Assembly: GCA_002840365.1 (NCBI GenBank)
Contig: PHAO01000001.1
Location: 85,101-149,100 of the forward strand
DNA: 64,000 nucleotides
Origin: Candidatus Dojkabacteria bacterium HGW-Dojkabacteria-1
GTDB lineage: Bacteria > Patescibacteriota > Dojkabacteria > SC72
Direction of reading: 5' to 3'
This document shows positions 20,195-59,983 of the stretch, piece after piece. A program made the translations under genes and the position numbers. How positions within the stretch are numbered: position 1 is the stretch's first letter; the number at the start of each line of letters is the position of its first letter. Under the pieces are notes generated by a model, which saw nothing but the letters and a program-made list of their open reading frames with translations, was not told the origin of the DNA and did not search any database.

Positions 20195-20415
20195 TATCCC
20201 TTAAATGGGTTTGTTAATTGAAGAGCTTTCATTACTCTTGAGAGATTAGGATTTCGTACTCCTCTAGATAGGTCTGTTCTAAGCTTGGTCTTGGTTTCTT
20301 GTTTTTCAAGAAGTTTCAAATCATTACCAAGCTTCTCTTGAGGAATCTGTTTAATATCAACAGCCTCAGTTACAAGATATTTTCTTATTTCATTGTTGTT
20401 ATTGGTTGTCGTCAT
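20191..20415 (-). CDS. Small hypothetical protein translationally coupled to the virB4-like gene
   Basis: 74-aa ORF whose ATG overlaps the virB4-like stop (20399..20415). No recognised domain. Confidence 0.3.
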   Translation of the reverse strand: MTTTNNNNEIRKYLVTEAVDIKQIPQEKLGNDLKLLEKQETKTKLRTDLSRGVRNPNLSRVMKALQLTNPFKGY

Positions 20416-22777
20416 TGTCTATGATTCCTTGTGGAGTTATATGACTCCTCCCTTTATTTAATTCTTCCCTTTGTTTTCTCACCTGTCCTGGGACAGTATT
20501 CTCTTCTATCATTTCTACGAAAGATTTTTGACTTTCATATTTCTTCGGATTCAACATCTCTTCCTGTTCCTTTAACCTTTTTTCTAACTCTTCCTGATAT
20601 TTTTCTCTTTCTGTCTTTATCTTTTCTATGTCTCCCTGTCTTCTTTCTACTGCTCTCTCAATCAATTCATTCTGTTTGTTAACATCTCCCGAGCTAGTCT
20701 TCATTGGCTGTTGTACTGTAGGAGGGTCATATATTTGTGCGAGCTCTGATATAGATCTTGTATCTGTCATTCCTTGTTGATTCTTCCTTGCTTCTAGTTC
20801 TCTTGGATCGGAAGTAATTAATTCATGTTCAGCTTGGCTTGAGAGTATTTGTATTCCTACATGGTTTGCACCTGCAAAGAATAGGCCTTGTCCTCTATCA
20901 CAGTTAAGGAGATAGTTTCTTTCTCCATCTGAGAGATTAAATACTTGTTGTAATTTCTCTACAGCTGAAGGACTCTGTTTCATAAGGACTTGAATTGAAG
21001 AGTTCGAGATTATTGCTCTACCCATATCATTGTTCATAAAGTCGGCAACATCCTGTGTAATTGTAGAAAGCCCAAGATAGTATTTCCTTGCTCTTTTTGC
21101 AAGAGAGTACATAAATTTAGCGGAATCTTCTCTCTGCATCATATACCAAGCTTCATCAACGATTAACAATCTTCTTCTTTGGTCTTTTCGTATCTTAGTC
21201 CATATGAAATCTAACATAAGGTACATTGCTAAAGGTTTGAGTTCTTCTTGTAAATCTCTAACACTGAATACAGTAAATGGATTATTTATTTCAAAGTTAC
21301 TTGCTTCATTGAATACTCCAGCACCACTTCCCATTATGTATTTTTCCATTCTTCTAGCTAAATCATGTGCTTCTGTTTCAGCCATACCTTTTAATACCTT
21401 ATACAAATCTTCAAGCAATGGAGCTTGTCTTTTTTGAGTTGCTGGATCGAATGTAATACCTTTCTCCCTATATGTTAATATTAATGCTCTATCAAGTATT
21501 GAGGTTTCTACATTGGTAAGCCCATCGAACATTACCTTAAAGAAACCTTGTAGTGCTAGAAGTTTCATTCTTAACTCATCATCTCCCTCTTCTGATACAC
21601 CTGAAAGATCAAATGGATTCATCTTGTGCCCTTTATCTTGAGAGAAGGATATGTATGAGCCGTTAACTGCCTTAGAAAGGTCTTCATATTCTCTTTCTGG
21701 ATCTATTATGATGATATGAGTACCAAGCATTAAGCTTCGAACGGCTTCTAATTTTACAAAATAGCTTTTACCAGCACCAGATTTTGCGAATATTACTGCA
21801 TTTGCATTCTCTAATTCAAACCTATCGAATATTACTAAGCTCTTGTTATGCATATTAATCCCGTACATGATTCCATGATCCATTGTTAATTCAGATGTAA
21901 CAAAGGGGAATGTAGTAGCAAGAGATGTTGTATCCATATTTCTAGTTATATACAACTTGTCTAGACCTAATGGTTGTGTACTAATAAAGGCTGGTTCCTG
22001 TTGTAGTGTTGCTGGCTTTGCGGTTACATTCATTGCTGCAAGAGTAGAGGTAACATTTCTAGAGTATTTTTCTAACAGCTCTTTGTTTGGTGCATATATT
22101 GTTACATACATTGCAAAGTGGAAGAATTTTTCTGTACCTTCTGCAATTGAGTCTTGAAGCTGTTGTGCATCTGAGAGTGCTACCTTTAATGAAGGGTCTA
22201 CGACTTTTCTGTCCTCCATTTGTGAATACAATGTAGCTTCCATTTCTCCGATTTTTTTCTTAAGTTTCTCTAATATAATCTTAGAATCTACAGGATAGTA
22301 GAAAGTACTAATTCTTAAAGAATGTTCGAAGTTGATAATGGGGGATAGCCAGTTTGGTCCTACGAATCTAGGATATCCACTGATAAAGAAAGTTCTTGAG
22401 TAGTAATTTCCCATTTGTAGAGTATTAAAATCAACCTCTACATCTATTGGTGCAATAATATCCTGTGTTGTTAAACCTGAGAATTTTCCAACCTGTGGTT
22501 CAAGGTTAACAGCTGCTGTTTGTGTACTTTTTCCTCCAACAGTAGATTTAAAATTGTCTAGCAGTTTAAAAAATGGATTCTTTTTGTTCTCTTTCTGTGT
22601 ATCATTGAACCTATCCTTTTGATCTATTTGTGTTTTCTGTTCTTTAACAGTATTTAGCTCCTTTCTTAAATCATTCTGGAAGGTAGCATATTTGTTCTGG
22701 TTAAATTGCTCCTGACGCTCGTTGAGCATCTTCATAGTCTTTGATTCTATATTGTTGTTTTGGCTATTGTTGTACAT
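20399..22777 (-). CDS. VirB4/TraC/CagE-family T4SS ATPase
   Basis: Walker A AKSGAGKSYFVK; Walker B LLIVDEAWYMM; VirB4-type N-terminal domain (…YYSRTFFISGYPRFV…). About 130-aa charged coiled-coil C-terminal extension. 792 aa. Confidence 0.85.
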   Translation of the reverse strand: MYNNSQNNNIESKTMKMLNERQEQFNQNKYATFQNDLRKELNTVKEQKTQIDQKDRFNDTQKENKKNPFFKLLDNFKSTVGGKSTQTAAVNLEPQVGKFSGLTTQDIIAPIDVEVDFNTLQMGNYYSRTFFISGYPRFVGPNWLSPIINFEHSLRISTFYYPVDSKIILEKLKKKIGEMEATLYSQMEDRKVVDPSLKVALSDAQQLQDSIAEGTEKFFHFAMYVTIYAPNKELLEKYSRNVTSTLAAMNVTAKPATLQQEPAFISTQPLGLDKLYITRNMDTTSLATTFPFVTSELTMDHGIMYGINMHNKSLVIFDRFELENANAVIFAKSGAGKSYFVKLEAVRSLMLGTHIIIIDPEREYEDLSKAVNGSYISFSQDKGHKMNPFDLSGVSEEGDDELRMKLLALQGFFKVMFDGLTNVETSILDRALILTYREKGITFDPATQKRQAPLLEDLYKVLKGMAETEAHDLARRMEKYIMGSGAGVFNEASNFEINNPFTVFSVRDLQEELKPLAMYLMLDFIWTKIRKDQRRRLLIVDEAWYMMQREDSAKFMYSLAKRARKYYLGLSTITQDVADFMNNDMGRAIISNSSIQVLMKQSPSAVEKLQQVFNLSDGERNYLLNCDRGQGLFFAGANHVGIQILSSQAEHELITSDPRELEARKNQQGMTDTRSISELAQIYDPPTVQQPMKTSSGDVNKQNELIERAVERRQGDIEKIKTEREKYQEELEKRLKEQEEMLNPKKYESQKSFVEMIEENTVPGQVRKQREELNKGRSHITPQGIIDNDDNQ

Positions 22778-23426
22778 TGTCTTCTCCTACTAATTCTTCA
22801 TCAGGGTTATATATTGTGTAGAATTCGGTAATTAACTCTTTGTTTGTCAGTTGATGTCCGAAGAGTCCCATTCGTCCTAACTGTTTTAAGATATGGTCTC
22901 TTTTTGGATACAAAAATATCTTTGCTTTCTCTAGTAATTGTTCCTGTCTCATTTGTAAAGCTTTCTCTATCTCTTCTCTTGTTTGTTTTGATTTAAATAT
23001 TCCCGAACCAGGTATATCTCCTGCAGGGTTAAAAGGTATTACTATTAAGAAAGTTTTGTCTAATACATCATTTTGTACAATTAAATTCTGTATGAATTCC
23101 GTATATATATTAAGCTGTCTTCTTAGTCCTTCTGACATACTTTCATTCTCTTGGTTTTTAAGGTAATCAACATAGTTTGATATATCAATTCTTTTTGTTC
23201 TGATTAATATCTGTATATGGAAATTCAAAGAATTAAGTAGACCTGCAAATGCATATATCTTACTATCCTGCTCATACTCTGCTAAGAGGTCAAAGTTAAT
23301 AGCAGATGTCTGAACTACCATTGCTACACTTCCACTTTTTGTTATTACCAAATCATCGACTATTTCCCTCACTTCGAGATGATCCTGTGTAGATGCTATT
23401 GTTCTTGCTCTTGCATTTGCTTCCAT
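22764..23426 (-). CDS. Soluble protein of the virB4 operon, function unknown
   Basis: 220 aa. Stop overlaps the virB4-like start by 14 nt. …DHLEVREIVDDLVITKSGSVAMVVQTSAINFDLLAEYEQ… loosely recalls the N-terminal segments of Gram-positive VirB4-like (TcpF/ConE) proteins. Confidence 0.4.
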   Translation of the reverse strand: MEANARARTIASTQDHLEVREIVDDLVITKSGSVAMVVQTSAINFDLLAEYEQDSKIYAFAGLLNSLNFHIQILIRTKRIDISNYVDYLKNQENESMSEGLRRQLNIYTEFIQNLIVQNDVLDKTFLIVIPFNPAGDIPGSGIFKSKQTREEIEKALQMRQEQLLEKAKIFLYPKRDHILKQLGRMGLFGHQLTNKELITEFYTIYNPDEELVGEDNVQQ

Positions 23427-24262
23427 TATTTCAATGCTATTTTCAAAGGTAATTTATTTTGATTTTTTGTAACTAATATTCGTAATTTTGGGGCACTAGA
23501 TGCTAGACCTTCAAACTCAATGATATATATCCCTTCAGGATATATCCTATTACTTAAGAAGTAACCATTTGGACCTGTCTTGTTAGCATAGAGGATTTTA
23601 CCATTAGAGTCCTTTAAGTAGGTATTAACATTTGAAAGAGGTTGATTATCTTTTGTACATAACCATATATTTATATTCCCAGGTAATTTATCAATACTTT
23701 TTATAGGGAATTGATATTTAGAAATATTCTCCTCGGAAATGGTTATATATTCATCATCTGGAAGAAGAATTTTCTCTTCTTGTTGAACAACATCTTTGGT
23801 TACTTCTTTTGTTTCTTCTCCCTCTATGGCTAATATGTCATCTCCAGGGTTTTCTTCGAATATTTGAGACTTCTGTTCCTCTCTTAGCTCTGTAGTACCA
23901 ATTACCTTCCTTTTTGTATCATCAATAGCTGTAACAGTAGGCTTTATTCTCTGTTCTTTGAGCGTTTGGTTAAGCCATACTCTTTGAGTAGGCCTATTAA
24001 TTGCTGTAAAGTAATTAATTATCGCCTTGTCTGCAGGTTGATCATTTATTGGAACGAGAGCTAGAAAAGCTCCTATTCCAGAAAGTATTGCAAAAAGAGG
24101 TATCCCAATTATTCCTGGTATGTCTCCTCCAATTGAGAGGTAAAGGAAAATACCTCCTGTACCTACACCTAGTGCAAGGTATGCAAACTCCTTTAGAGTA
24201 AATCTTGTAAAGAGTTTAAACTCAACATCTAATACATTTTGTGGAATAGGGTGTTGTCTCAT
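23426..24262 (-). CDS. Bitopic/di-topic membrane protein, possible VirB3-like component fused to an extracytoplasmic beta-rich domain
   Basis: Two adjacent N-terminal TM helices (…LALGVGTGGIFLYLSIGGDIPGIIGIPLFAILSGIGAFLALVP…) followed by about 200 aa of hydrophilic sequence. First gene of the virB4-containing operon. Confidence 0.35.
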   Translation of the reverse strand: MRQHPIPQNVLDVEFKLFTRFTLKEFAYLALGVGTGGIFLYLSIGGDIPGIIGIPLFAILSGIGAFLALVPINDQPADKAIINYFTAINRPTQRVWLNQTLKEQRIKPTVTAIDDTKRKVIGTTELREEQKSQIFEENPGDDILAIEGEETKEVTKDVVQQEEKILLPDDEYITISEENISKYQFPIKSIDKLPGNINIWLCTKDNQPLSNVNTYLKDSNGKILYANKTGPNGYFLSNRIYPEGIYIIEFEGLASSAPKLRILVTKNQNKLPLKIALK

Positions 24263-28645: not shown

Positions 28646-28646
28646 A

Positions 28647-29560: not shown

Positions 29561-29974
29561 ATGGATGTCATGGGGGAAAGAAAGATAATTGGATATGTTG
29601 TGTTTTTTGTTATTGCCCTTGTAACAGTTATTTCTCCAATTTATATACTTTTAAACAGGGAAGATGTAAAAGGTGTTGATATACAAAGAGATATTACTAC
29701 TCCACATCCATATATTACGAACCTTATGCCAAAGAGTGCCTATGTGGGAGAAGAGTATATTTTTGTTCCTAGAGTAGTGGCAAATGATTTCGGAAATGTA
29801 GTATTAACTATAGAGGAGGGACCAAGTTGGTTGTATATTGATGAGGGATATATAATTAGGGGCTACCCTTCATCGAGTGATATTGGTACTGTAAAGGTCA
29901 CACTTAAGGTTGATGATGGAATGGGTAGTTCTACAATATCTGAATATATTATAGTTACAGAAGATGAAGAATAG
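29561..29974 (+). CDS. Small membrane-anchored protein with a He_PIG (putative Ig) domain
   Basis: N-terminal TM. …YVGEEYIFVPRVVANDFGNVVLTIEEGPSWLYIDEGYIIRGYPSSSDIGTVKVTLKVDDGMG fits the He_PIG pattern. Confidence 0.45.
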   Translation: MDVMGERKIIGYVVFFVIALVTVISPIYILLNREDVKGVDIQRDITTPHPYITNLMPKSAYVGEEYIFVPRVVANDFGNVVLTIEEGPSWLYIDEGYIIRGYPSSSDIGTVKVTLKVDDGMGSSTISEYIIVTEDEE

Positions 29975-30362
29975 GGGGATTTTCACAATTGGGGTTGTAC
30001 TTACTGTCCTTATGATTTTTGTAGGAGTTTTTGTATTTAAGGCATCAGGATCTAATGATTCTGTTTCCGTGGAGGGATGTAATCCTTACAATGTAGAGAT
30101 TAAGAAAGGAGAGAAAGAAAATTCTGTAGAGATAACATGGAAGAGTAAGACAAGATGTTCTGCATATATTCTTTATGGTACAGAAATGAAGAATTTAAAT
30201 CTTGTTGCAATAGATTTGGAGGGGGATTTTAGAGGAAAGAATCACAAGGTTGTTATTAACTCCTTATTGTCTTCTAAAACATATTTCTTCTCTATTGTTT
30301 CTGGTGGTACTACGTATGGTAAGGATGGTTTACCAATATCATTCTCTATTTCTTCCCTCTGA
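29964..30362 (+). CDS. Small exported protein with an FN3 / purple-acid-phosphatase-N-like module
   Basis: VEITWKSKTRCSAYILYGTE…KTYFFSIVSGGTTYG. This module is paralogous to two modules in the 50608..52224 protein. Confidence 0.45.
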   Translation: MKNRGIFTIGVVLTVLMIFVGVFVFKASGSNDSVSVEGCNPYNVEIKKGEKENSVEITWKSKTRCSAYILYGTEMKNLNLVAIDLEGDFRGKNHKVVINSLLSSKTYFFSIVSGGTTYGKDGLPISFSISSL

Positions 30363-40979: not shown

Positions 40980-41774
40980 TTAATACCTTTCTGCTACTAC
41001 AACTAATCTTTTTGTTCCTACTCCCAGTGGCCAGCAGGTCATCATTGTTAAGGTTTCTTTGTCCCCTTGGGTTTTTAAGATAGAGAAATCATCAGCAGAG
41101 ACTATTTTTTTGTTTCTAACAACATACTGAATTTCCTCTGTACCTTTCTTTACTCTTACGTTGTCTCCAATATCAACACTTTCTAATCTTGTGAAGATAG
41201 TTTCTGGAAGGTTTGAATGCCTATTAAAGAAACTCAAAACTGCACTATGTCCATATACAAAGGAATTTCCGCCATCTCCAGGAAGAGGGGTTCCTTTGAA
41301 ATGTGCTAAGCCATATTTCAGATATTGGTTATATATCTTCTCATCAGAGCTTTCTACATTAGGAGTTATCCTTATCCCTTGTATATCTACAGAATCAATA
41401 TCCATGTACATATTCTCACGATATTCTTTGTTGACAATAATGGGTTTGTTAGATTTGGTTCTAGGATCATATGTAAATACTCCTTGATATTGTAAATTTT
41501 CTGCAGAACTAAACAGATTCTCAAAATAGCTTTTACCTGGATCATAGTATGCAAATTCATCTGCAATATACTGCTTGTACGATTCGGGAAAGGGATCTTT
41601 CATAAGTCTTTGTTTTAATTCTTCAAATTCACCTTGGATATATGATTTACTAAGAGGGAAGACTTGGCTAGTAATTACAATGATTCCAAAAATTGCTAAT
41701 ACCCATGCTAATGTTTGTTTTATTCTCTTTATCTTTCTCTCATCTTGAACGGAGATTTTCATATTGTTATCCAT
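40980..41774 (-). CDS. Sortase-family transpeptidase
   Basis: N-terminal TM; FVYGHSA (His); LTMMTCWP (TLxTC Cys motif); KRLVVV (Arg). Confidence 0.65.
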
Positions 41775-50245: not shown

Positions 50246-50566
50246 ATGGAAACGATTCCACCAATATATTGGATGGTGATAATAGGGGTATTAGTTGGAT
50301 TCATATGTTTTGTTTTGTACCAAGTAGCAATGCTTCTTAAAGAATCTAAGCATGCGGTTACAGATTCAAGAAAAATACTTCAAGAAGCTGTTAAGACTGT
50401 TGATATGGCAAATGCCCTATTAGCTGATGCAACAGAGATTGTAAGTACAGCCAAAAGTACTGTGAATGAAGTAAATAACGCGATAATAGGCCCTATTAGA
50501 AGAATATCTTCTCTTCTTTCTGTAGTATCTGGTTTTGCTGAGGGGTTAACCTCTAAAAGAAAGTAA
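50246..50566 (+). CDS. DUF948-like small membrane protein
   Basis: N-terminal TM plus a coiled-coil with alanine/threonine periodicity; 106 aa. Confidence 0.45.
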   Translation: METIPPIYWMVIIGVLVGFICFVLYQVAMLLKESKHAVTDSRKILQEAVKTVDMANALLADATEIVSTAKSTVNEVNNAIIGPIRRISSLLSVVSGFAEGLTSKRK

Positions 50567-50607
50567 AAATCGTTGCCATGGAGTCTTTCTCTTTGTATTA
50601 TGAATAG

Positions 50608-52224
50608 ATGTATTTAACCCCGTATCAAAAAAGACAAATAAAAATTGTAGCTGCTTTAGTAATTGGTATTCCATTAACGATTTTTGCTGTGTACCAAGGG
50701 GTTCGATACCTTTCACGTGCTGGTGCAGAGGCAGTACCTAAAGATGTTGTAGTTACAAATCTAACAACAAATTCTCTAACAGTAACATGGTTTACAGATA
50801 CACCTGCTGATGGATATGTTGTACCTGTATTAAATGGAGTAGAACAAAGTCCTGTTAGAGATAAAAGGGGAGGGGGTAACAGAACATCTCACTATGTTGA
50901 ACTGCGTAGTTTAGAACCTAATACAAAATATTCCTTTGTAATTGTTTCTGGAGGTACAAAGTATACAAACAGTGGTGGTAATAACTATGAATTTACAACG
51001 GCTCCAGTTGGGGCAGATACCCCTATTCCCAATCCAATTCATGGCTCTGTAACAGGAATATCTAATGATGATGTGATAATATATGTTTTCCCTAAAAACA
51101 ATAGTGCATATCCAGTATCAACCACTATTCCAAGTGGTGGAAACTGGATCGTAGATCTTTCTTCCTTTAGAAAAATAAGTGACAAGAGTATGTTAAGAAT
51201 TACTGATGATACAGAACTTGTTCTTCTTGCAAAAAATACCACTGGTAAAGGAGCGCTTTTAGAAGGGGCATATTCATCACTTTTTGATAGTAATGGGAAA
51301 TTAAATCAAACACTATCCTTAAGAATAGAGGATATTTCTGATTTAATATCTTTCTTTCCAAATGAATCTAAAATGGGAGCAACGCAAGCAAGTACTCCTA
51401 CGCCTTCTCCTTCTCCAACGCCTACACCCACTCCTACTCCAACACCTGAACCAGATGATGAGGATATAGATATTGATACCAATTATCAAATTGTGCATGA
51501 TTTGAGATGGATAGATATGGTTACTGGTGATGCACAAGCTTCTTTAGATTCAGGAGAGTCTACTATCTTGATTACAAATCTTACAGATGTAGGTTTTACA
51601 GTAATTTGGAGATCTCCACAAAAAGTAGAGGGATATATTAAATATGGTACTAGTAAAACTGCTCTTACAGAGGAATCATGGGATGTAAGAGATGGTCTCT
51701 CATCTAGAAACACTTACTATGCTCATGCGGTTGATACAGCAAGACTAGATCCAAATACAACATACTACTTTGAAGTCTATTCAGGAGAAACTAAATACAA
51801 CAATTCAGGAAATATGTACTCTGTTACAACATTCTCTACCCTTGGTTCTCCACCACCATTTGAAACTAAATCTGGATCTATATCTAATGCAACGAATCCA
51901 GGAGATTGGATATTGGTAGGTAAGATTGTTGATGACGATGATGCAGGAACATCTGGTTCATCAAGATATCTTTCAACAGTTCCTGATGACAATGGGAATT
52001 GGATATTAACTTTGGGAGACGCAAGAAGTGAAGATGGTTCTTCATATTTCTCCTTCTCTAACTCAGATATTTTAAGCATATATTTGCTTGGAGATAGTAA
52101 GAAACTTTTTGACAACAAAATTTCTCTTTCAGAGATACCAATAGACGCATCTTTGGTTGGAGGTGGGGTCTCTGTAAGTAAGGTTAAATTGCTTTCTGAC
52201 TATGGAATCGTTAATATAAAGTAG
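50608..52224 (+). CDS. Secreted protein with two FN3/PAP-N-like modules and a (TP)n linker
   Basis: N-terminal TM. Modules …LTVTWFTDT…TKYSFVIVSGGTKY… and …FTVIWRSPQ…TTYYFEVYSGETKY… TPTPSPSPTPTPTPTPTPEP linker. Confidence 0.5.
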   Translation: MYLTPYQKRQIKIVAALVIGIPLTIFAVYQGVRYLSRAGAEAVPKDVVVTNLTTNSLTVTWFTDTPADGYVVPVLNGVEQSPVRDKRGGGNRTSHYVELRSLEPNTKYSFVIVSGGTKYTNSGGNNYEFTTAPVGADTPIPNPIHGSVTGISNDDVIIYVFPKNNSAYPVSTTIPSGGNWIVDLSSFRKISDKSMLRITDDTELVLLAKNTTGKGALLEGAYSSLFDSNGKLNQTLSLRIEDISDLISFFPNESKMGATQASTPTPSPSPTPTPTPTPTPEPDDEDIDIDTNYQIVHDLRWIDMVTGDAQASLDSGESTILITNLTDVGFTVIWRSPQKVEGYIKYGTSKTALTEESWDVRDGLSSRNTYYAHAVDTARLDPNTTYYFEVYSGETKYNNSGNMYSVTTFSTLGSPPPFETKSGSISNATNPGDWILVGKIVDDDDAGTSGSSRYLSTVPDDNGNWILTLGDARSEDGSSYFSFSNSDILSIYLLGDSKKLFDNKISLSEIPIDASLVGGGVSVSKVKLLSDYGIVNIK

Positions 52225-52273
52225 GGTTTGTGTATTGTATTAAAATGCATTAGAATCAGGTGCTTAATCAAGA

Positions 52274-53605
52274 ATGAGAATGTATCTAGACAAATTAAAA
52301 CCAATATTTTTACTCTTTGTAATGACAGTTTCGTCATTAGGTATAGTTTTTGTCGTAAATCAATTTAAGGATACTTCTAAGTATGTAAAACCTGTTGAGG
52401 GGGCTTTGGAAGTTAAGATTGTCGAGAACAGTACAGCATTAGTAAATAACAGTGATACCACTATTCCACAGAAAGTATCAGAGGATAATCAGGGAATAGT
52501 TTTGAGTACAGAGGCAACAAATTCATGTGCACAAGCGATTATTAAAATACAGTCATATTCTGTATGTTCTAGATCTGGTACAGCAGAAGAGGATTACAAA
52601 ACAGGAAATAGGTCGGGTAATACTGTGAGTAAAAATTCCACAGTAAAGCTTATTGAAGTTACTATACCTTTAGAACTTTTTGCAGGTTCTGATGTAAAAG
52701 ATTCTAATCGTAAACTAACTGATACTACGCCTATTAATCTCTCTGCAGGTAATATGTTTGATGATAAAATTGCAAACGGTCAATTACCTCCTGGGGTTCA
52801 AATCTCTGAATATAAGCCTTCTGTAAAAAATAGGCCTTTTTCTATGCCATATTCTACTGCTTTTGAACAAAAAGCAAACATTAATAGTGAAGAGGGAGAG
52901 GTTGTTCAGGATAAAAAATTGGGAGGATATAAATGTGAACATTGTAAAAATGAATCAAATGTTACTCCTCATAGAACGAATCAGTTGAGTACTTTCATGG
53001 TAGATATCTTGTATAGGACGCCTGGTGAAAAGAATCAGGTAAAAGCTGAAGATGCAATTGAATCATGTTCTGATAAAGATGATTTTATTGAATGGAATAA
53101 CAATAATAGGAAATCATGTGCATTAAGCACAGTTACTGTAGCAGTAGAATTAATAAAATCCATACCAGAATCTATTTGGAGTGAATGTAAAGGAGGGGTT
53201 AAATATGATCAAAATGGAAACCCTATCCCTCCTAGTGAAGATTGTATTTTTCCTGAAGACATAATAATAAAAATGACCTCTGGGTTTGGTTCTGATAGGG
53301 AGTGTCCTGATGGAGTTTGTACTAATAAGTATATGAATACAAGAAATAATGTTGCACTAGCTCCTATAGATGCTAATAAGACAAATAAGCAATATTTTAC
53401 GACTGCATGTAAGGTAATCATTGAAGGTAAGGTATATACTGTAAAGTGTGCTTGGGATATGTCTCATCTTTATAAAGAAAGGAAATTTTCTGAGTACGAT
53501 GATTTGCCAGGTGTAGAGAGTACACCTACAAAAGACCAATATACTAGATATCTGTTAGAAGAAGGAGATCGTAGAAAAGATGCTCCTGAGATAAAAATCT
53601 TTTAG
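52274..53605 (+). CDS. Cys-rich secreted hypothetical protein
   Basis: N-terminal TM/signal; at least 14 Cys in the ectodomain; no known domain. Confidence 0.45.
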   Translation: MRMYLDKLKPIFLLFVMTVSSLGIVFVVNQFKDTSKYVKPVEGALEVKIVENSTALVNNSDTTIPQKVSEDNQGIVLSTEATNSCAQAIIKIQSYSVCSRSGTAEEDYKTGNRSGNTVSKNSTVKLIEVTIPLELFAGSDVKDSNRKLTDTTPINLSAGNMFDDKIANGQLPPGVQISEYKPSVKNRPFSMPYSTAFEQKANINSEEGEVVQDKKLGGYKCEHCKNESNVTPHRTNQLSTFMVDILYRTPGEKNQVKAEDAIESCSDKDDFIEWNNNNRKSCALSTVTVAVELIKSIPESIWSECKGGVKYDQNGNPIPPSEDCIFPEDIIIKMTSGFGSDRECPDGVCTNKYMNTRNNVALAPIDANKTNKQYFTTACKVIIEGKVYTVKCAWDMSHLYKERKFSEYDDLPGVESTPTKDQYTRYLLEEGDRRKDAPEIKIF

Positions 53606-53627
53606 ATTAATTTTTTAATAAACAAAA

Positions 53628-55109
53628 ATGAGTATTACGCTCCAAGTATATGAAAAGATTTTGATATTGAAGGAATTTGTTACTAGAAAAACATTCCAAA
53701 ATGCATTTCTAGGATTTCTTTCTTTGCTTCTTTTCTTCGGTGTAATGAATGTATATGCACAAGAAGATGCAAAAATATCTCCCGATTGGGGTGGTACAAA
53801 AGAGTTTCATAATGAGATAAGTGGAACGAATAGAGACGAGGATAATATGAATAGTAGGCAAGGTTTAGAAGTACTCAATACGAGCTGGACAGTATTATCC
53901 TTAATGGCTCCAGAGGTAACTGAAAATGGTGAACAAGCTATGAGTAATCCTAATGTTCCATATGATTTAAGAAGGGGAGCTTTAGGTATGTTAGAAGATG
54001 CAGGGAATCTTGTAGTGGCCTCATATCCCGTTGTAGATATCCCACAACATTTAGCACAAGAATGGGTTCCTGGATACAGAGAGAATGTTACAGGTTTGTA
54101 TGCCCAGAACTCTTCTGCAGGACATAATTCTGGATATCAAGAATTAATGAGTAGTGGAATAGTTAGCCTTTGGAATAGAACTCTAAATCTTTCATATGTA
54201 GCTTTTGTTTTAATAATGATTGTTGCAGGATTTATGATTATGTTCAGACATAAGCTAGGAGGTCAAACTATGGTTACCATAGGTAATGTTCTTCCTGGTG
54301 TAATTACGGCATTAATATTAGCAACCTTTAGTTTTGCAATTGCAGGTTTAATCATTGATTTAGGTGGAGTTGCTACAGGTCTTGTAGCCTTCATTCTAGG
54401 AGATGGAGCTGAAATAAAATCAATCTCTTCCCTCGGAGGATTAATGGCTACAGTTCTTAGTGGTGGAGTCGGTATGGCAACAGTTATTAGTGCAGTTGGA
54501 GGAGGTTTGTTGCTAGGAGGTGCCGCTATCGGTGCTGGTGGACTTGCTGCTATTGCATCTGGTCCTGTTGGATGGTTGATTCTTGGTGCCGTTGGAGCAA
54601 TTGGAATTATATTTGCAATTATAATCATTGGAATAATCTTTGTAGGAGCTCTTAAAGTCATTATCGCTTTGTACAAAGCATATTTCTCTTTACTTTTAGC
54701 AGTGATACTTGGACCAATACAAATAACCTTGGGTGCAATGCCAGGTAATAGTCATATGATTAATAACTGGTTCTTAACGGTATTAAGGAATGTATTGGTA
54801 TTTCCTGTAGTACTATTCATTGTTAATATCCCAAATGCCCTTATGAACTCTGGAAGTGATGTCTTCCTTAGATTCCCAGGGAAATTAGTTTATGAAGACC
54901 CTGCAACATATGATGCATGGGATTTAAATGCTGCAAGTGGAATTTTCATATTCATCCTTAAAATCTTTGTACTCTACTTCGCAGCTCAAGCACCTAAGTT
55001 CCTTGAATCTTGGTTCCCACCAAATACACCTAAGGCAATAGGAGAGGGTATTGGGGCGGCTCAAGCAAGTCTTTCAAAGATTCCTTTGGTAGGTGGATTC
55101 TTTAAGTAA
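53628..55109 (+). CDS. VirB6/TrbL-like polytopic T4SS membrane protein
   Basis: Signal sequence and an approximately 140-aa exported segment, then a Gly-rich multi-TM core (…VGGGLLLGGAAIGAGGLAAIASGPVGWLILGAVGAIGIIFAIIIIG…) typical of the TrbL/VirB6 family. Confidence 0.5.
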   Translation: MSITLQVYEKILILKEFVTRKTFQNAFLGFLSLLLFFGVMNVYAQEDAKISPDWGGTKEFHNEISGTNRDEDNMNSRQGLEVLNTSWTVLSLMAPEVTENGEQAMSNPNVPYDLRRGALGMLEDAGNLVVASYPVVDIPQHLAQEWVPGYRENVTGLYAQNSSAGHNSGYQELMSSGIVSLWNRTLNLSYVAFVLIMIVAGFMIMFRHKLGGQTMVTIGNVLPGVITALILATFSFAIAGLIIDLGGVATGLVAFILGDGAEIKSISSLGGLMATVLSGGVGMATVISAVGGGLLLGGAAIGAGGLAAIASGPVGWLILGAVGAIGIIFAIIIIGIIFVGALKVIIALYKAYFSLLLAVILGPIQITLGAMPGNSHMINNWFLTVLRNVLVFPVVLFIVNIPNALMNSGSDVFLRFPGKLVYEDPATYDAWDLNAASGIFIFILKIFVLYFAAQAPKFLESWFPPNTPKAIGEGIGAAQASLSKIPLVGGFFK

Positions 55110-55127
55110 TAGTTAAGTACTTGATAT

Positions 55128-57776
55128 ATGGCAAAGAAACCTAAATCAGACAATTTTGATGCTTTAGGTAGTGTCTATGATTTCCTTTTCACTGAAGCAA
55201 AGAAGAAACCAGAGAAAAGAAGACCTATAAAGCCAACTGAGGTTTCAGGTACCAGTATGATGACCGATGCTGTTTTTGCGGCATTGGAAAAACCTGGTGC
55301 CTTTATTTCAAACACCATTGTAGATGAATTTAACGGGGCTCTAGATTTGGAGCTTGGTGTTGTTCAATTTGATACCACTGGAAAGTTTAAAATTACATCG
55401 AATTCTTTAGTAGAAATTTTAAAAGATCCTCAAAAGGCGGTCGAGAAGTCAATTGCAAAAAACCAAGCAATTAGGAAATCCATGCGAGCTACATATCTCC
55501 GAGAATTTATGAAGGACTTTGTTGCCACAGGATGGGCTAGAAAATATGGAGATATTGAAGCACAAAAAGCAGTGTATGGTTCCAGTATTGCATCAAGACA
55601 AAGACTTCTCTCTGAAGAAAGCTATGCAGTCGCAAAGGCAATTGGTCAATACTCAGGAGGTAATATAGACATGGGTTCATATGGGAAGATGAGCTCTGCA
55701 GAAAATGAATTCCTTCACAAAAGATCTCTAGAACTTGTTCGTAGAAAGATGATTCCTCAAGATAAGTGGGATTCTCTCTCTGAGCAAGAAAAAGCATCCT
55801 TTAGAGAAGCATTCCTTAGAGAAAATTCTTGGAAGAAATTTAAGGATACTGATGTTCCAGATACTTCATTACAACAATTTCTAAATGCAAGATTTGGTAC
55901 CGAAGGAGCTGGTATGTACCAGAGATATATAGATACTACAGACAAAGACGTAGCAAAAAGAAACATCGCTGATCCTAAGAAATATCTACAGCTTGAAACC
56001 GCATATCTTGATGAAAATATCAAAAGCTTAGAAAACATTACAAACCGTAATGAACAACAACAAAGAAATTTAGATGTATATAGAAAGACAAAATATCTTT
56101 TAGACAAAGGAAAGGGAGAGGCAAAATTACGTACGGAGTTAGAAAGAATTAGAACTGACCTTCGAAGTGTAACGGATCCTACTCAGAAAAGATTGCTAGA
56201 AAGAGAGTTAAAGGACACGAGAACAGCACTCAGATATATTTCCGGAGATAACTTGATGGGTAGGATAGGCAAATGGGAGGGGTATGTTAATAGCTGGAAT
56301 ATGATTTATGGTCCAAAGGGTTCTCAGCTATTTCAAAGTGTATTAACAGGGGATTTTTTTGATGCAAAGAAAAATACTATATTTTGTCCGACGAAAGTTA
56401 GTGAAATTGATAACAGGGGTGGAAAAATCGAAATAATGGTTGGAGCAACATCTCCTAGGGGTCTTATTAATGCATATAATCAGATGGGAACTCAACTCTA
56501 CTATATGACCCCAAGATCTGTATTCAGAACTCTTTTCTATAATGGTGAGGGTTTTACATACCTACTCTTTAAGAAGTTAGAAAAAGAGCAAGATCTTCTT
56601 AAAACTCTTGCGACAGGCTTAGGAGAGAAAGATTTCAAAACAGAAAACCTACTAGGGTTACTTATTAATAAAGACATGAATACTTTCCTTACAGATAATG
56701 CTTCAAAGTTTAGCCCTGAAGACTTGGAAAAGATAAAGAAATTTTTTGAATCAAACAAAAACTTTTCATCTGTAATAAAAGTATTTAGTACAGGAAGTAG
56801 AATACAGCAAATAATACAATCAAGAGTTAATGCTATTACTGCACCAATAAGAAGAAAGATTGCAGAAAAATTCCTAATGAAATTTGTATCAAAATATGGA
56901 GGAGCTGAGCTATTGAACCAGTGGATTATGAAAGGTGGTATTAATGTAATGGTTAGATCTTTAGCAACAGGAATCGCGGGAGCTCTTGGATTAGTTGCTA
57001 CTCCACTTGGGAGTGCAATAATAACGGCAATCACATGGGTTTTAACAGATTTAGCAATGAAGGCATTTGCTCAAATGCTAATAGTTGGAAAATATATACT
57101 GTTTGGTTTAATTGGAATTGTTTTCCTAGTAATATTCTGGGCAAGTGGTTCAGTAAAAAGTTTCAATAAAAACAATTTCTCCTACTACAATGAAACCCCT
57201 GGCTCAATAATCCAGTGTTCATTGTACGAAGAAAGAGACCTTGGTACAGGTGATGAAGCTCCTTGGGGAGATACAATAATACCTCCTCCATCTGGAGAAA
57301 GCTGTGTATTTGGAGCAGGATCATTCTGGTGTTCACAGGGGTATAAAGATACAAAAGGTTGGAGTCACCAAAATATTAACCATTTAATGCCAGTAGACTT
57401 AACAAGTGTAGGATATATATATGCTCCACAATTTTGTAGTACTGGAAATTGTAGTATAACGAGAATAGCAGTAATTAACTGTAGAGATGGATCTAATGCA
57501 GGAGGAATAGTTGAATTAACTGCAAGTAATGGTTCTACTACATACCTATTCAAACTTCTACATGTCAAACCACTTGCAGGATTAGGAGAGAAACTTAGTG
57601 GTGGTCAACCAGTTGCTGTTGTACAAGATAGGCCAGAGGTCGAAAGAGGATGGTGTTGGACAGGTAAACACTTACACTTAGAGACAAGACAAAATGGTGC
57701 AACTGTAGATCCACTAAAACTCCTTCAAAGTTTTAGCTGTAATGTACCAGATGAGTCTAGCTGTGCAAGACCATAA
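55128..57776 (+). CDS. Large bipartite protein with a cytoplasmic coiled-coil N-terminal region, a TM hairpin, and a C-terminal Cys-rich M23 metallopeptidase domain
   Basis: M23/LytM motifs NHLMPVD…VGYIYAP…LLHVKP…SGGQPVAVV…TGKHLHLET…TVDP. Hydrophobic segment at about aa 600-670. 882 aa. Confidence 0.6.
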   Translation: MAKKPKSDNFDALGSVYDFLFTEAKKKPEKRRPIKPTEVSGTSMMTDAVFAALEKPGAFISNTIVDEFNGALDLELGVVQFDTTGKFKITSNSLVEILKDPQKAVEKSIAKNQAIRKSMRATYLREFMKDFVATGWARKYGDIEAQKAVYGSSIASRQRLLSEESYAVAKAIGQYSGGNIDMGSYGKMSSAENEFLHKRSLELVRRKMIPQDKWDSLSEQEKASFREAFLRENSWKKFKDTDVPDTSLQQFLNARFGTEGAGMYQRYIDTTDKDVAKRNIADPKKYLQLETAYLDENIKSLENITNRNEQQQRNLDVYRKTKYLLDKGKGEAKLRTELERIRTDLRSVTDPTQKRLLERELKDTRTALRYISGDNLMGRIGKWEGYVNSWNMIYGPKGSQLFQSVLTGDFFDAKKNTIFCPTKVSEIDNRGGKIEIMVGATSPRGLINAYNQMGTQLYYMTPRSVFRTLFYNGEGFTYLLFKKLEKEQDLLKTLATGLGEKDFKTENLLGLLINKDMNTFLTDNASKFSPEDLEKIKKFFESNKNFSSVIKVFSTGSRIQQIIQSRVNAITAPIRRKIAEKFLMKFVSKYGGAELLNQWIMKGGINVMVRSLATGIAGALGLVATPLGSAIITAITWVLTDLAMKAFAQMLIVGKYILFGLIGIVFLVIFWASGSVKSFNKNNFSYYNETPGSIIQCSLYEERDLGTGDEAPWGDTIIPPPSGESCVFGAGSFWCSQGYKDTKGWSHQNINHLMPVDLTSVGYIYAPQFCSTGNCSITRIAVINCRDGSNAGGIVELTASNGSTTYLFKLLHVKPLAGLGEKLSGGQPVAVVQDRPEVERGWCWTGKHLHLETRQNGATVDPLKLLQSFSCNVPDESSCARP

Positions 57777-57799
57777 AGATAAGTTATTAAAATGCCCAA

Positions 57800-58771
57800 A
57801 TGAAAATACAAGGAAGTAAAAAAACAGCACTAATAGTATTAGGCATTTTTGTTGCAATACTCGTAGTTGTACTAGCTTTTGTTCTCTTCTCAGGAATGAG
57901 GAAAAAATATCCGGAAGATCCTGTAAAAATGAAAAACCTTGGAAGTAGTAATCAACAGGTTGAAATTACATCGCTTGATTTTCAGATAGAGGAGAAGGAT
58001 TTACCACTTTACTCTGTACAACCCAAAATACACATAAACCAGGTAGAACAGATGATAGATAGGATGGGACTATCTTTGCAAAGGAAGGATATCGTAAAAG
58101 ATAGCTATATTGAATGGAGTGATGGTGAAAATACATTTGTGTATGACTCTGTTCTTGATTCTGTCTCTTTTCAACTAAGTAGAAGAATATCTCTTGAAAG
58201 AGGTGGGTCATCCTTTAGTACTGCTTTCAAAAGATATTTTGATTTAGAATATGAGTTTAAACTTGTAAGAGAAAGAAAGAATCTAGATGGGGGTATTACA
58301 TATTACGGCTCGAGACTGCTTGATAATATGCCTATGCAGTATGGTGCAAACTATGAATACACAGATATTCTTAGTTTTAATACAGAGGGAAATTTAGAAT
58401 CAGGCAAATTACTACTAGCAGAGATAGAAAAACATGACTACTATCTACCACTAATAAACAAGAGAGAATTAAATGAATATATAAATACAAGAGGCTATCC
58501 TAAGGAACACTACATAGATACTTCAGTATTAGCGGATATACTTGAATTAGACTATCTTGATGATGAATGGTCTAAAATAGAAAATACATTGGAAGATTGT
58601 AGAGCAAGAACTCTTGAAACTGTATTTCTTTACAAAACATCTAACCAAGGATACCTTTTACCTGTATTCAAAATACTTTCGAATTGTAAGGTTGTTGCTT
58701 CTGGAAGTGAGTATACAGTACCTACAACATTCTATGTTAATGCTGTAGACCCTAGATATGTCTCATTGTAA
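57800..58771 (+). CDS. Bitopic membrane protein, possible VirB8-like scaffold
   Basis: N-terminal TM followed by about 290 aa of extracytoplasmic sequence. The assignment rests on position and topology only. Confidence 0.3.
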   Translation: MKIQGSKKTALIVLGIFVAILVVVLAFVLFSGMRKKYPEDPVKMKNLGSSNQQVEITSLDFQIEEKDLPLYSVQPKIHINQVEQMIDRMGLSLQRKDIVKDSYIEWSDGENTFVYDSVLDSVSFQLSRRISLERGGSSFSTAFKRYFDLEYEFKLVRERKNLDGGITYYGSRLLDNMPMQYGANYEYTDILSFNTEGNLESGKLLLAEIEKHDYYLPLINKRELNEYINTRGYPKEHYIDTSVLADILELDYLDDEWSKIENTLEDCRARTLETVFLYKTSNQGYLLPVFKILSNCKVVASGSEYTVPTTFYVNAVDPRYVSL

Positions 58772-58795
58772 TAACCATTGTGATACAATATTGAA

Positions 58796-59983
58796 ATGAA
58801 AATTTTAAAACTTCTACAGATTACAATTCTTTCAACAGTTGTTCTTTTCCTTTTTTCTTCAACTTCCTATGCAATGGAAATAGTTGGAAGAGACAGTATT
58901 AAACTTGATGATGCCTTGGCAGAAAAAGAAATACTTTTCTCCCAACCTAGAAAAATTTACATAACTCAGGTTCACAGTAACAATAGAAATATTAAGAATG
59001 ATACAAAGGCATGGATTAGATCTATATACTACTACAGTATAACTAGGCTCAAATTGAATGATATCCCATACAACTATCTAATAGACAAAAGTGGAAATGT
59101 ATATGAAGTATCTAAAGGTGGTGTTGGAGCAAACCCTGGATTAGAAGCAGGAGATAACATTGTATTGATTGGTATTCTTGATAACAATACAGCTCTTACT
59201 CCCAGAACAGAATCCTCATTGGTAGAGCTTGTTGAAACTCTTTCATATAGATATGGAATTAAGCAAGATGGTTGGGATTTTGTTAATCTAAAAATAGTTT
59301 CTAATGAAAATGAGAGATCTTACTTAAGAGCAGAGAGTTCAAAAACTTCTACACTTCAATCTGTATCTCAAGCTCTCGCCAAAGTACGTTGGTCAGATAA
59401 AGAGCATTTAGATTACAAGGCAAGTATAGAGAAAGTAGAATACTCTCAGGAAGTAGAAGTAGGGCAAAAGCTTGAAGTAAAGGTAACAATAAAGAATGAA
59501 AATGATTTCCCATGGTTTGGAGATGTAACATATATATATGTTTCAACAAAAGATGCTAAAGAGAGTGCATATGCAATTAATTCTGTTTGGGAAAGTTTTA
59601 GTAGACCAACATATATCAAAGATAGGGTGGTAAAACCTGGTGATACAACAGAAGTAATATTCTCCCTTATGGGAAAGAGTCGCCCAGGTGAATACAAAGA
59701 GGTATTCGTCTTTACAAAAGATGAAACTGGTGTATTTGAAGGTTCCGAATTTGAAGTGGTATTTAAAATAATTGCAGGAGAAAAGAAGCTCGTAGAGGTA
59801 GTTTCTCCTCAGTATGGATTTGTAAACATTAGAGAGTGTAGATGGTTTAGCTGTAAAAAAGTAGAGGTTGCAAATCATGGAGATGTCTTCATCATGAATA
59901 AAAAAGAGGAAGGATGGTATGAAATCATATTTAATGAGAGTGATTTAGGTTGGGTTACCCAGCAGTATATTAGGGAGCTTTAA
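58796..59983 (+). CDS. Secreted Amidase_2/PGRP-like domain protein with a C-terminal SH3b domain
   Basis: Signal peptide; …IYITQVHS…DIPYNYLIDKSGNVYEV…NIVLIGIL… (amidase_2-like); C-terminal …GFVNIRE…VANHGDVFIMNKKEEGWYEI…GWV (SH3b). Confidence 0.4.
   Translation: MKILKLLQITILSTVVLFLFSSTSYAMEIVGRDSIKLDDALAEKEILFSQPRKIYITQVHSNNRNIKNDTKAWIRSIYYYSITRLKLNDIPYNYLIDKSGNVYEVSKGGVGANPGLEAGDNIVLIGILDNNTALTPRTESSLVELVETLSYRYGIKQDGWDFVNLKIVSNENERSYLRAESSKTSTLQSVSQALAKVRWSDKEHLDYKASIEKVEYSQEVEVGQKLEVKVTIKNENDFPWFGDVTYIYVSTKDAKESAYAINSVWESFSRPTYIKDRVVKPGDTTEVIFSLMGKSRPGEYKEVFVFTKDETGVFEGSEFEVVFKIIAGEKKLVEVVSPQYGFVNIRECRWFSCKKVEVANHGDVFIMNKKEEGWYEIIFNESDLGWVTQQYIREL

Follow-up and report, generated by a model that had tools for sequence, protein, structure and literature searches.

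Introduction

The closest described systems are the chromosomal, MPF-FATA-like type IV secretion systems (T4SS) of Patescibacteria, exemplified by SEML1_0006-0019 of the Saccharibacteria member 'Southlakia epibionticum' and surveyed in PMC12102498. A non-conjugative role is the published picture for these systems (PMC12102498, PMC10633639). In a cultivated CPR bacterium, the T4SS is one of a small number of machines with a demonstrated essential role in the epibiotic lifestyle, and its composition is known in outline only. According to surveys, VirB6 is rare in, or missing from, large CPR classes.

Here, we analyze a seven-gene block in the chromosome of the CPR bacterium Ca. Dojkabacteria HGW-Dojkabacteria-1, together with the window around it, by which we mean the whole 64-kb stretch of DNA analyzed. 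Like the Patescibacteria T4SS, the present system has a CD1110-type VirB4 with TrsD and PrgI/VirB3, a VirB6-like polytopic protein, and an M23 wall hydrolase that is not necessarily beside virB4. Both are chromosomal, lie amid housekeeping genes and have no relaxase or coupling protein nearby. Unlike the described systems, the present one is divided into two loci 27 kb apart, shows no VirB2-like pilin array in the window, and has a VirB6-like protein that escapes the HMMs used so far. It also carries a lineage-specific accessory set of FN3, Cys-rich and PGRP-SH3b proteins, and a signal-less helical N-terminal region of ~610 aa on the hydrolase. The type of system is already described; this is not a new kind of system, and the novelty is smaller than a preliminary description of the locus implied. 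New here are the divergent VirB6-like family, its gene pair with the hydrolase g5, and the split layout.

Our data suggest, with a probability of roughly 0.6, that the block makes up one half, the envelope-spanning one, of a chromosomal, non-conjugative, MPF-FATA-like T4SS, and a PrgI(VirB3)-TrsD-VirB4 operon the other.

A seven-gene block fixed in the chromosome

Table 1. Genes of the block (g1-g7) and of the ATPase operon, in coordinates of the window
Gene	Position	Strand	Length (aa)	Description
PrgI/VirB3-like	23426..24262	-	278	First gene of ATPase operon; TM segments 26-74
TrsD-like	22764..23426	-	220	Related to VirB4 N-terminal region
VirB4-type T4SS ATPase	20399..22777	-	792	CD1110 family; motor
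g1	50246..50566	+	106	First gene of block; N-terminal TM anchor (1-34), then helical region
g2	50608..52224	+	538	Membrane-anchored surface protein; TM 9-32
g3	52274..53605	+	443	Membrane-anchored ectoprotein; 12 Cys
g4	53628..55109	+	493	Polytopic, Gly-rich (11.6% Gly); candidate VirB6-type channel subunit
g5	55128..57776	+	882	Candidate PrgK/VirB1-type wall hydrolase and scaffold
g6	57800..58771	+	323	Bitopic; N-terminal TM and ~290-aa ectodomain
g7	58796..59983	+	395	Secreted; PGRP/Amidase_2-like domain, beta-rich middle, C-terminal SH3b

The ORF check places the seven genes exactly where the preliminary description had put them, all on the plus strand between 50246 and 59983 (Table 1). The gaps from g1 to g7 are 41, 49, 22, 18, 23 and 24 nt (range 18-49 nt), and all products carry a hydrophobic anchor or signal at the N-terminus or have TM segments internally. 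The earlier picture of closely spaced, co-directional genes for exported or membrane proteins only is thus borne out. The block is flanked by rsmE/rsmB and uvrD in surroundings of translation and RNA-modification genes, and the flank scan found no integrase or att-like repeats around it. The synteny check that had been proposed shows the seven-gene order and the housekeeping flanks kept in ~50 Dojkabacteria genomes, with g3-g4-g5-g6 as the conserved core; across dozens of genomes, the recurring proteins are 25-90% identical. The seven genes recur in the same order and with identical housekeeping neighbours in dozens of genomes, so this run of ORFs is no coincidence.

Profile scans detected no pilin, relaxase, VirD4 or integrase in the block, as had been claimed, and the same holds for the 64-kb window, including any other coupling protein. 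For the VirB2-like T4SS_pilin family (PF18895), the scanned ORFs of the window, most of them at least 100 aa long, gave no match. The fixed order throughout the class, the absence of viral relatives and the lack of mobility signs agree with the earlier view of a chromosomally fixed, non-conjugative locus, and support a block that is neither phage nor mobile element.

A divergent VirB6-like protein

The g4 protein begins with a signal or anchor at residues 25-45, followed by a hydrophilic helical region predicted to be extracytoplasmic (46-184, ~140 aa) and at least six hydrophobic/TM segments between 184 and 459. This is the topology of TrbL/VirB6, with at least five TM helices and an extracytoplasmic helical region. 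The best structural matches from two different methods are T4SS channel proteins, VirB6 and DotA, with modest scores. Sequence profiles give a different answer. At E ≤ 0.1, g4 matches 0 Pfam families, TrbL/VirB6 included, and NCBIfam gives nothing relevant; its relatives match PF04610 weakly in 3 of 37 cases (best 5.4e-4) and in 0 of 87 in another set, and the family profile finds no match among PDB sequences. There is no significant sequence similarity to TrwI of R388 (PDB 7o3v/8rtd; VirB6/TrbL, PF04610) or to the DotA protochannel (PDB 9ngy). In addition, g4 exceeds the length of VirB6/TrbL proteins (about 260-340 aa) and, unlike them, is rich in Gly and Ala in its central TM region. The VirB6/TrbL-like label of the preliminary description is favoured by the fold and by the family's neighbourhood, but sequence profiles do not bear out membership in the Pfam family.

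In Microgenomates-group relatives, the g4 family adjoins T4SS_pilin arrays in 7/7 cases, with large M23 proteins nearby in four distinct loci and PrgI nearby in two. Two Microgenomatia loci (L085 and L086) hold the g4 family and PrgI in a single cluster. The predicted fold and this genomic company support a VirB6-like identity of g4. Clustering at 50% identity divides the family into at least 3,385 groups, none of them annotated; judged from these searches, the family is large and is not recognized as VirB6 by standard methods. If the assignment of g4 is true, it would give a role to a very large family of 'hypothetical proteins' in Dojkabacteria and Microgenomates, and the T4SS genes of these lineages would have to be sought outside the virB4 neighbourhood.

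The ATPase operon

The preliminary description pictured a T4SS-derived surface apparatus. That such an apparatus lacks a motor here is contradicted by a PrgI(VirB3)-TrsD-VirB4 operon at 20399-24262, 27 kb upstream of the block, which that description did not mention. VirB4 scores 401 bits against NCBIfam conju_CD1110, above the cut-off of 325, and also matches the Pfam families TraG P-loop (4.5e-29) and CagE_TrbE_VirB (6.5e-5). The two smaller proteins are matched more weakly: the TrsD-like protein hits NCBIfam TrsD (2.3e-8) and VirB4_plasma (2.3e-7), both far under the curated cut-offs, and the PrgI-like protein hits Pfam PrgI at 5.4e-5, its 24.1 bits falling short of the gathering score of 27. 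Both genes adjoin virB4 in the expected order and position, and the PrgI-like sequence matches the PrgI-annotated terminal genes of L085 (3e-18) and L086 (2e-13). Since this operon lies in the same window, the preferable reading of the block is as half of a T4SS that is split but otherwise ordinary for Patescibacteria.

An M23 hydrolase on a large helical region

The g5 protein, which is 100% identical to CVU76_00680 of HGW-Dojkabacteria-1, lies directly downstream of g4 in every locus that shows both. Residues 1-610 are helical and presumably cytoplasmic, as they have no signal peptide; residues 614-679 are hydrophobic, and a Cys-rich M23/LytM domain occupies ~700-882. This layout agrees with the earlier one except for its 'TM hairpin', since two TM segments would leave the Cys-rich M23 domain on the cytoplasmic side. 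The Pfam M23 match (residues 782-862, 3.2e-4) is under the gathering cut-off, at 21.3 against 28.7 bits, but the fold confirms it. In the predicted structure (AF2, pLDDT 72), Foldseek recovers LytM (2b13_A) and LysTt72 (8s3m_A) with a probability of 1.00 each, and five homologues have a precomputed PF01551 match. Of 38 homologues, 30 keep H747, D757 and H850, and the aligned motifs LLHV and HLH show H812 and H848. These residues form the H...D, H, HxH pattern of LytM/lysostaphin-type endopeptidases, from which g5 differs by 10 residues between the first His and Asp in place of the usual HxxxD, by extra disulfide-capable Cys residues, and by the fusion to a large membrane-anchored protein. The C-terminal M23 domain recognized previously is thus genuine and probably active, as judged from the modelled fold and the kept residues.

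In Gram-positive T4SS, the wall hydrolases CwlT (ICEBs1) and TcpG (pCW3) are functional analogues of PrgK and serve the VirB1 function; PrgK also has a LytM-type domain. The pairing of VirB6 with such a hydrolase, which had been drawn for this locus, finds support in gene adjacency and in a PrgK-like layout. In both PrgK of pCF10 and g5, a signal-less N-terminal region is followed by a TM segment (245-278 in the PrgK-type protein compared) and a peptidoglycan hydrolase that in g5 is presumably external; Microgenomatia M23 proteins were compared likewise. Both are encoded beside core T4SS membrane proteins. The pairing is not backed by sequence homology, as hhalign of g5 with pCF10-type PrgK gave nothing, in a low-power comparison with a single-sequence template. 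Moreover, g5 has the M23 domain alone, with no SLT or CHAP match, its N-terminal region is far larger (~610 aa), and it adjoins the VirB6-like gene and not VirB4. Within the family, conservation is highest in this N-terminal region, and there are paralogues without the hydrolase altogether.

A proposed split secretion system and its alternatives

In the proposed split T4SS, g4 would form the membrane channel or platform as a highly divergent VirB6-type protein. The large cytoplasmic helical domain of g5 would be anchored in the membrane and carry an active M23 endopeptidase outside, like PrgK, CwlT and TcpG, which may open the peptidoglycan of the own cell and/or the host cell. The bitopic g6, at a VirB8-like gene position, the probably wall-binding g7, and g2 and g3 would contribute to the wall-spanning, surface-exposed part as building blocks or decoration, and VirB4 would power assembly or transport. 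The data directly show the order of the genes and its conservation, the domain folds, the catalytic residues, the likeness of the g4 fold to VirB6 and DotA, and the T4SS surroundings of homologues. That the products of the two loci assemble physically is something we infer, as are any substrate, direction of transport and role in host interaction. The block provides defined candidate envelope components (VirB6-like protein, g5 scaffold-hydrolase, g6, PGRP-SH3b, FN3 and Cys-rich proteins) on which structural and genetic work can address how ultrasmall bacteria connect to their hosts.

A more far-reaching proposal, which we put forward only tentatively, is that the g4 family is the 'missing' VirB6 of Dojkabacteria and Microgenomatia T4SS. 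With g5 as its obligate partner, a membrane-anchored ~600-aa helical protein that is M23-tipped only sometimes, it would form a CPR-specific channel module replacing the canonical VirB6/VirB8/coupling-protein arrangement. If so, the large N-terminal domain of g5 would give an essential host-interaction machine a new component, one that docks or recruits substrates.

Alternatively, the block might encode a housekeeping envelope complex that is independent of any T4SS and serves, for example, in peptidoglycan remodelling, cell separation or surface-layer assembly. On that view, g4 would be some unrelated transporter or polytopic protein, and g5 and g7 would act on the wall or bind it. Its place among translation and RNA-modification genes, its universality in the class without mobility signs, and a distance to virB4 that is never below 10 kb would fit such a complex, as would the failure of g4 to match a TrbL profile and the common use of M23, PGRP and SH3b domains in ordinary wall metabolism. 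However, we consider it unlikely: the top structural matches of g4 by both methods are specifically T4SS channel proteins, its sister-lineage homologues adjoin T4SS pilin arrays, with M23 and PrgI genes close by in some loci, and the published Patescibacteria T4SS likewise sit amid housekeeping genes.

It is more doubtful still that the block is, as a literal reading of the preliminary description would have it, a T4SS-derived surface apparatus that functions autonomously and independently of VirB4 after the loss of motor and pilus, for example as a passive channel or a device for attachment and wall breaching. The block itself has no ATPase, pilin, relaxase or T4CP, its separation from virB4 is conserved, and some genomes have a second g4-g5 pair elsewhere, beside dnaA/dnaN. 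Nevertheless, the window holds a complete PrgI-TrsD-VirB4 operon that otherwise has no channel partner there, and L085 and L086 unite the g4 family with PrgI.

A prophage tail, tape-measure or lysis module is suggested by the NCBI name of homologue P0358 ('phage tail tape measure protein') and by the M23, amidase-like and SH3b domains of phage lysins, with LysTt72 among the fold matches of g5, but is effectively refuted: PHROG gives no significant match for the seven proteins (only g1 has a weak hit, E 0.0048, to a functionally uncharacterized family), the g4 and g5 families have no relatives in 2.9 million viral contigs, and the flanks and the class-wide order and position are those of a fixed chromosomal locus. 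The T4SS reading thus survives the check for nearby phage structural genes that had been set against it.

Accessory proteins of the block

Both domains of the amidase_2/SH3b protein g7 match as described (Pfam Amidase_2 1.1e-4, SH3_3 5.8e-4); its family profile matches PGRPs at 1.3e-4, a fold-level likeness, and the SH3b domain of 4krt at 6.2e-8. The enzymatic name 'amidase' probably does not hold. No His is conserved at ≥85% anywhere in 28 homologues, the catalytic zinc ligands (His, His, Cys/Asp) are not found, and 'YITQVxT' stands where the first ligand would be expected. Because the family has no conserved His, g7 is likely non-catalytic, and on its sequence it probably binds peptidoglycan without cleavage.

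No Pfam family or PDB sequence matches g6, which is kept after g5 in divergent loci too. Its position as the gene after the hydrolase makes it a candidate analogue of PrgL/VirB8. Genes of 321-350 aa after M23 in Microgenomatia give a weak HMM hint of relatedness to g6 (E 0.01 and 0.04 in a 12-sequence database).

The FN3-repeat protein is present as reported, with two FN3-like domains in g2 (Pur_ac_phosph_N 1.9e-11, fn3 1.3e-8) joined by a Thr/Pro/Ser linker, and g2 is syntenic in 59 of 79 related loci. At the start of the block, g1 has only a weak match to DUF948 (Pfam, 5e-3) and holds the same position in 56/79. The Cys-rich protein g3, confirmed by its Cys count, matches no known family in Pfam or NCBIfam and is syntenic in 57/79; in the divergent loci L073 and L076, its HMM also matches the gene preceding the g4-like one.

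A conserved chromosomal block of envelope genes

Our data suggest, with a probability of about 0.6, that the block at 50246-59983 encodes the envelope part of a chromosomal type IV secretion system (T4SS) of MPF-FATA-like type whose genes are split between two loci. The preliminary description of seven consecutive plus-strand genes, here g1 to g7, encoding only exported or membrane proteins was confirmed: ORF calls returned the same seven genes to the nucleotide, and all products are membrane-anchored, exported or polytopic in a hydropathy scan. Scans of all seven proteins against Pfam, NCBIfam and PHROG gave no family for g1, g3, g4 and g6. The successive gaps from g1 to g7 measure 41, 49, 22, 18, 23 and 24 nt, and a promoter and terminator scan found no terminator-like site in any of them, which is consistent with a single operon but does not prove it. 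Upstream lie the housekeeping genes rsmE, rsmB/F, pnp, rpsO, infB, nusA and dnaJ, and downstream are uvrD/pcrA and the gene encoding a G5-domain protein. The GC content of the block (0.33-0.38) does not differ from that of the remainder of the window. A mobile island with att repeats was rejected, as no att-like repeats were found at the borders of the block.

Features of the window, in coordinate order
Feature	Coordinates	Strand	Description
ThyX-like gene	15534-17129	+	531 aa
PrgI/VirB3-like, TrsD-like and VirB4 operon	24262-20399	-	Three genes, 27 kb upstream of block
Overlapping ORF	28094-28696	-	200 aa; no family match
Overlapping ORF	28647-29195	-	182 aa; no family match
Surface-protein and sortase genes	29561-32079, 37743-39599, 40980-41774		
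g1	50246-50566	+	ORF
g2	50608-52224	+	ORF; Pfam: two FN3-like domains
g3	52274-53605	+	ORF; no Pfam family
g4	53628-55109	+	ORF; no Pfam family
g5	55128-57776	+	ORF; Pfam: weak M23 match
g6	57800-58771	+	ORF; no Pfam family
g7	58796-59983	+	ORF; Pfam: weak Amidase_2 and SH3_3 matches

In a scan of species-representative genomes, relatives of g4 are encoded at 79 loci. When the window proteins were compared with these loci by tblastn, g4 was matched in 79, g5 in 70, g2 in 59, g3 in 57, g1 in 56, g7 in 52 and g6 in 38, counts in which many loci are truncated by contig ends and g6 is fast-evolving. Synteny is conserved in about 50 genomes, where rsmB and rsmE, both reversed, are followed by g1 to g7 and uvrD in the forward direction and then by the reversed G5 gene; protein identity across the syntenic loci goes down to 25-40%. 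Both g4 and g5 have their homologues in Dojkabacteria/WS6, and g5 is 100% identical to CVU76_00680 ("hypothetical protein") of HGW-Dojkabacteria-1, encoded on a 734-kb contig; this bears out the CPR-like genome of the preliminary description. For some block-bearing contigs (L004, L007, L024 and L072, as well as many "uncultured Candidatus Saccharibacteria" entries), the records give the source as Clostridia, Gammaproteobacteria, Prolixibacteraceae, Caldisericales or Saccharibacteria; on a Dojkabacteria-specific block, these labels probably reflect mis-binning or coarse labelling.

g4 as a divergent VirB6-type candidate

Sequence profiles do not place g4, first described as VirB6/TrbL-like, in the TrbL/VirB6 family, and g4 itself has no Pfam or NCBIfam match. 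Its family is very large: when 1.84 billion cluster representatives were searched with a profile, 3385 matched with E<=1e-3, and 2849 still did so with E<=1e-10. Distant members with a source name belong to Microgenomates-group CPR (Woesebacteria, Pacebacteria, Cerribacteria), almost all of them "hypothetical". The TrbL family PF04610 was weakly matched by 3 of 37 distant members (best 5.4e-4), and in a second Pfam scan by none of 87 further Microgenomates-group relatives, so the sequence link between g4 and TrbL stays weak. The g4 family profile A3 found nothing useful among PDB sequences, and profiles A1 and A3 reached a probability of <2% against a single pCF10-type PrgH in hhalign, a single-sequence template making this test weak and its outcome uninformative. 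The AlphaFold model of g4 is all-helical with a mean pLDDT of 64. In a Foldseek search of the PDB, each of its six best matches was a TrwI/VirB6 chain from the R388 T4SS, the best with E 0.037, probability 0.99 and TM 0.36 (target-normalised); two methods, of which Foldseek is one, pointed the same way, with modest scores.

Seven Microgenomates-group g4 homologues were examined on their contigs. In all seven, T4SS_pilin (PF18895, VirB2-like) genes arranged as an array, together with a gene for a protein of 1076-1640 aa, precede the g4-like gene, and in four distinct loci a Peptidase_M23 protein of 1190-1362 aa is encoded <=10 kb downstream. At two of these four loci, L085 and L086, a gene for a bitopic protein of ~330 aa and then PrgI come after the M23 gene, and the PrgI sequence of the window matches both of these PrgI genes (3e-18 and 2e-13, respectively). 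Members of the g4 family thus have T4SS genes as neighbours in a related CPR lineage. Local g5 and g6 HMMs were significant against the Microgenomatia neighbours for the M23 domain alone, the remaining matches being hints. The main rival to a T4SS assignment, an envelope complex independent of any T4SS, would sit easily with the weak sequence link to TrbL; set against the VirB6 matches of the g4 model and the company its family keeps, we consider it unlikely. In three Microgenomates-group loci (L084:2610-6290, L089:2416-6076 and L090:803-5100), the pilin array that precedes the g4-like gene has an ECF-type sigma-70 gene immediately upstream in divergent orientation, which hints at dedicated transcriptional control of the pilin/T4SS cluster.

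g5 and its pairing with g4

The AlphaFold model of g5 (mean pLDDT 72) divides into three parts. The first, residues 1-610, is helical, has no signal peptide and is unlike any PDB fold; a hydrophobic stretch follows at residues 614-679, and residues ~700-882 form a beta-rich domain matching LytM (2b13_A) and the M23 endopeptidase LysTt72 (8s3m_A) with probability 1.00 each. H747, D757 and H850 are retained in 30 of 38 homologues, and H812 (motif LLHV) and H848 (motif HLH) are seen in the aligned motifs; with its catalytic residues kept, the peptidase is probably active, judging from sequence. In eight distant homologues another Cys-rich domain takes the place of M23. Seven of the ten cysteines of g5 are conserved within the C-terminal domain, which argues that this domain is extracellular. 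An extracellular C-terminus implies an odd number of transmembrane (TM) passes, so the TM hairpin of the preliminary description is doubtful; its C-terminal M23 domain stands.

The same layout, with a signal-less N-terminal region, a TM region and an external hydrolase, is common to the M23 proteins of Microgenomatia, whose TM region lies at ~650-750, and to pCF10-type PrgK from an E. faecalis plasmid, whose TM region lies at 245-278. The g5 profile A2 gave a probability of <2% against PrgK and one Microgenomatia M23 protein in hhalign, again a weak and uninformative test with single-sequence templates, and neither A2 nor the g6 profile A4 found anything useful among PDB sequences. In pCF10, the VirB8-like gene prgL comes after prgK. 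The gene g6 comes after g5 in the same way and would be a candidate counterpart of prgL by position; no sequence match to g6 was found in family scans or among PDB sequences. With the g7 family profile, matches were obtained to PGRP domains (1.3e-4) and to the SH3b of autolysin 4krt (6.2e-8). No histidine is conserved at 85% or more anywhere among 28 g7 homologues, so the Amidase_2 zinc ligands are absent. Of the original amidase-SH3b label, the PGRP/Amidase_2-like and SH3b domains hold but amidase catalysis probably does not, and g7 is most likely a peptidoglycan-binding protein.

Local HMMs also detected g4-g5-like pairs in other contexts, at the divergent loci L071, L073, L074, L076 and L077, often with a g3-like gene ahead of the pair and a g6-like one behind it. 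At L088:9280-14100 such a pair adjoins dnaA/dnaN, its g5-like member being assigned by position and weak co-linear HMM segments only (whole-protein g5 HMM match non-significant, E 0.2). The g5-like proteins of L074, L077 and L088 stop soon past the TM region and have no M23 domain. These three paralogous pairs indicate that what is conserved at the core of the g5 family is the N-terminal domain plus TM region, paired with g4, the hydrolase being an addition to it. In some Dojkabacteria there is thus a second g4-g5(-g6) module, divergent from the first, as in D-36_MAG_6, the source of both L077 and L049.

A probable motor operon in the same window

The preliminary description did not mention the PrgI-TrsD-VirB4 operon of the same window. 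A Pfam match (5.4e-5) marks one of its products as PrgI/VirB3-like and an NCBIfam match (2.3e-8) another as TrsD-like; the third is a CD1110-family VirB4 (NCBIfam, 401 bits against a curated cut-off of 325; TraG P-loop in Pfam, 4.5e-29). This trio has been described for Patescibacteria (PMC12102498). No VirB6 candidate lies beside the operon, g4 being the sole one among the window ORFs scanned. As first noted for the block, relaxase, T4CP and T4SS pilin were not found, here among the scanned ORFs of the window, mostly of 100 aa or more. Among the matches listed from a plasmid collection, the best to the Dojkabacteria VirB4 is a region of Streptomyces sp. BHT-5-2 "plasmid p1" (L087, NZ_CP081497.1:2172441-2202201; 37% identity, 74% of query, E 3e-115), far above Firmicutes plasmids among those matches; the region is unannotated in PLSDB and dense in overlapping ORFs of at least 100 aa.

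In the split T4SS that we favour, g4 would form a VirB6-type channel or platform and g5 would act as a PrgK-like anchored hydrolase and scaffold. The products of g6, g7, g2, g3 and g1 would be wall-spanning or surface accessories, and PrgI-TrsD-VirB4 would be the motor. Gene content, conservation, folds and context are observed, whereas joint assembly of the two loci, a substrate and any part in host contact are inferred. Of the T4SS-derived chromosomal apparatus originally proposed, it holds that the block is chromosomal, conserved and non-phage and that the g4 family has T4SS neighbours in a related lineage; the VirB4 operon speaks against an apparatus left without a motor, and a literally motor-less T4SS derivative is more improbable than a T4SS-independent complex. 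A prophage or tape-measure module, suggested by the name "phage tail tape measure protein" that NCBI gives to one g4 homologue (P0358), is ruled out, since PHROG gave no significant match for any of the seven proteins (g1 is weak, E 0.0048, to a family of unknown function) and the g4 and g5 families have no relative among 2.9 million viral contigs. Nothing else points to phage, and a Gly-rich helical protein has probably been misnamed in annotation.

Relaxase-less chromosomal T4SSs resembling Gram-positive conjugation systems have already been described in Patescibacteria, where the T4SS is essential to the epibiotic growth of a Saccharibacterium (PMC10633639, PMC12102498, review PMC12857230). 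In one survey, VirB6 is described as "scarce" in Microgenomatia, "suggesting extreme sequence divergence", and VirB1-like hydrolases, often with M23, are mostly distant from virB4 (PMC12102498). The locus fits this picture and adds a divergent VirB6 candidate, a tight g4-g5 pairing, a split architecture and a lineage-specific accessory set.

Other features of the window

The ThyX-like protein has two separate Thy1 matches and about twice the usual ThyX length, and may represent a flavin-dependent thymidylate synthase that arose by tandem duplication or fusion; its gene lies within a folate/dTMP run with folD, glyA and dcd. No tRNA or tmRNA was found in the 64 kb by ARAGORN. The two overlapping minus-strand ORFs may belong to a single gene that a frameshift or a mis-called start has divided. 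Small He_PIG and FN3-like proteins, a 577-aa DUF11 protein, a 618-aa Big_7 protein and a sortase gene suggest a rich, sortase-dependent surface proteome. With a TTG at 41715 as its called start, the DnaJ ORF runs into the sortase gene and has its J domain at residue 50; the true start therefore probably lies further downstream.
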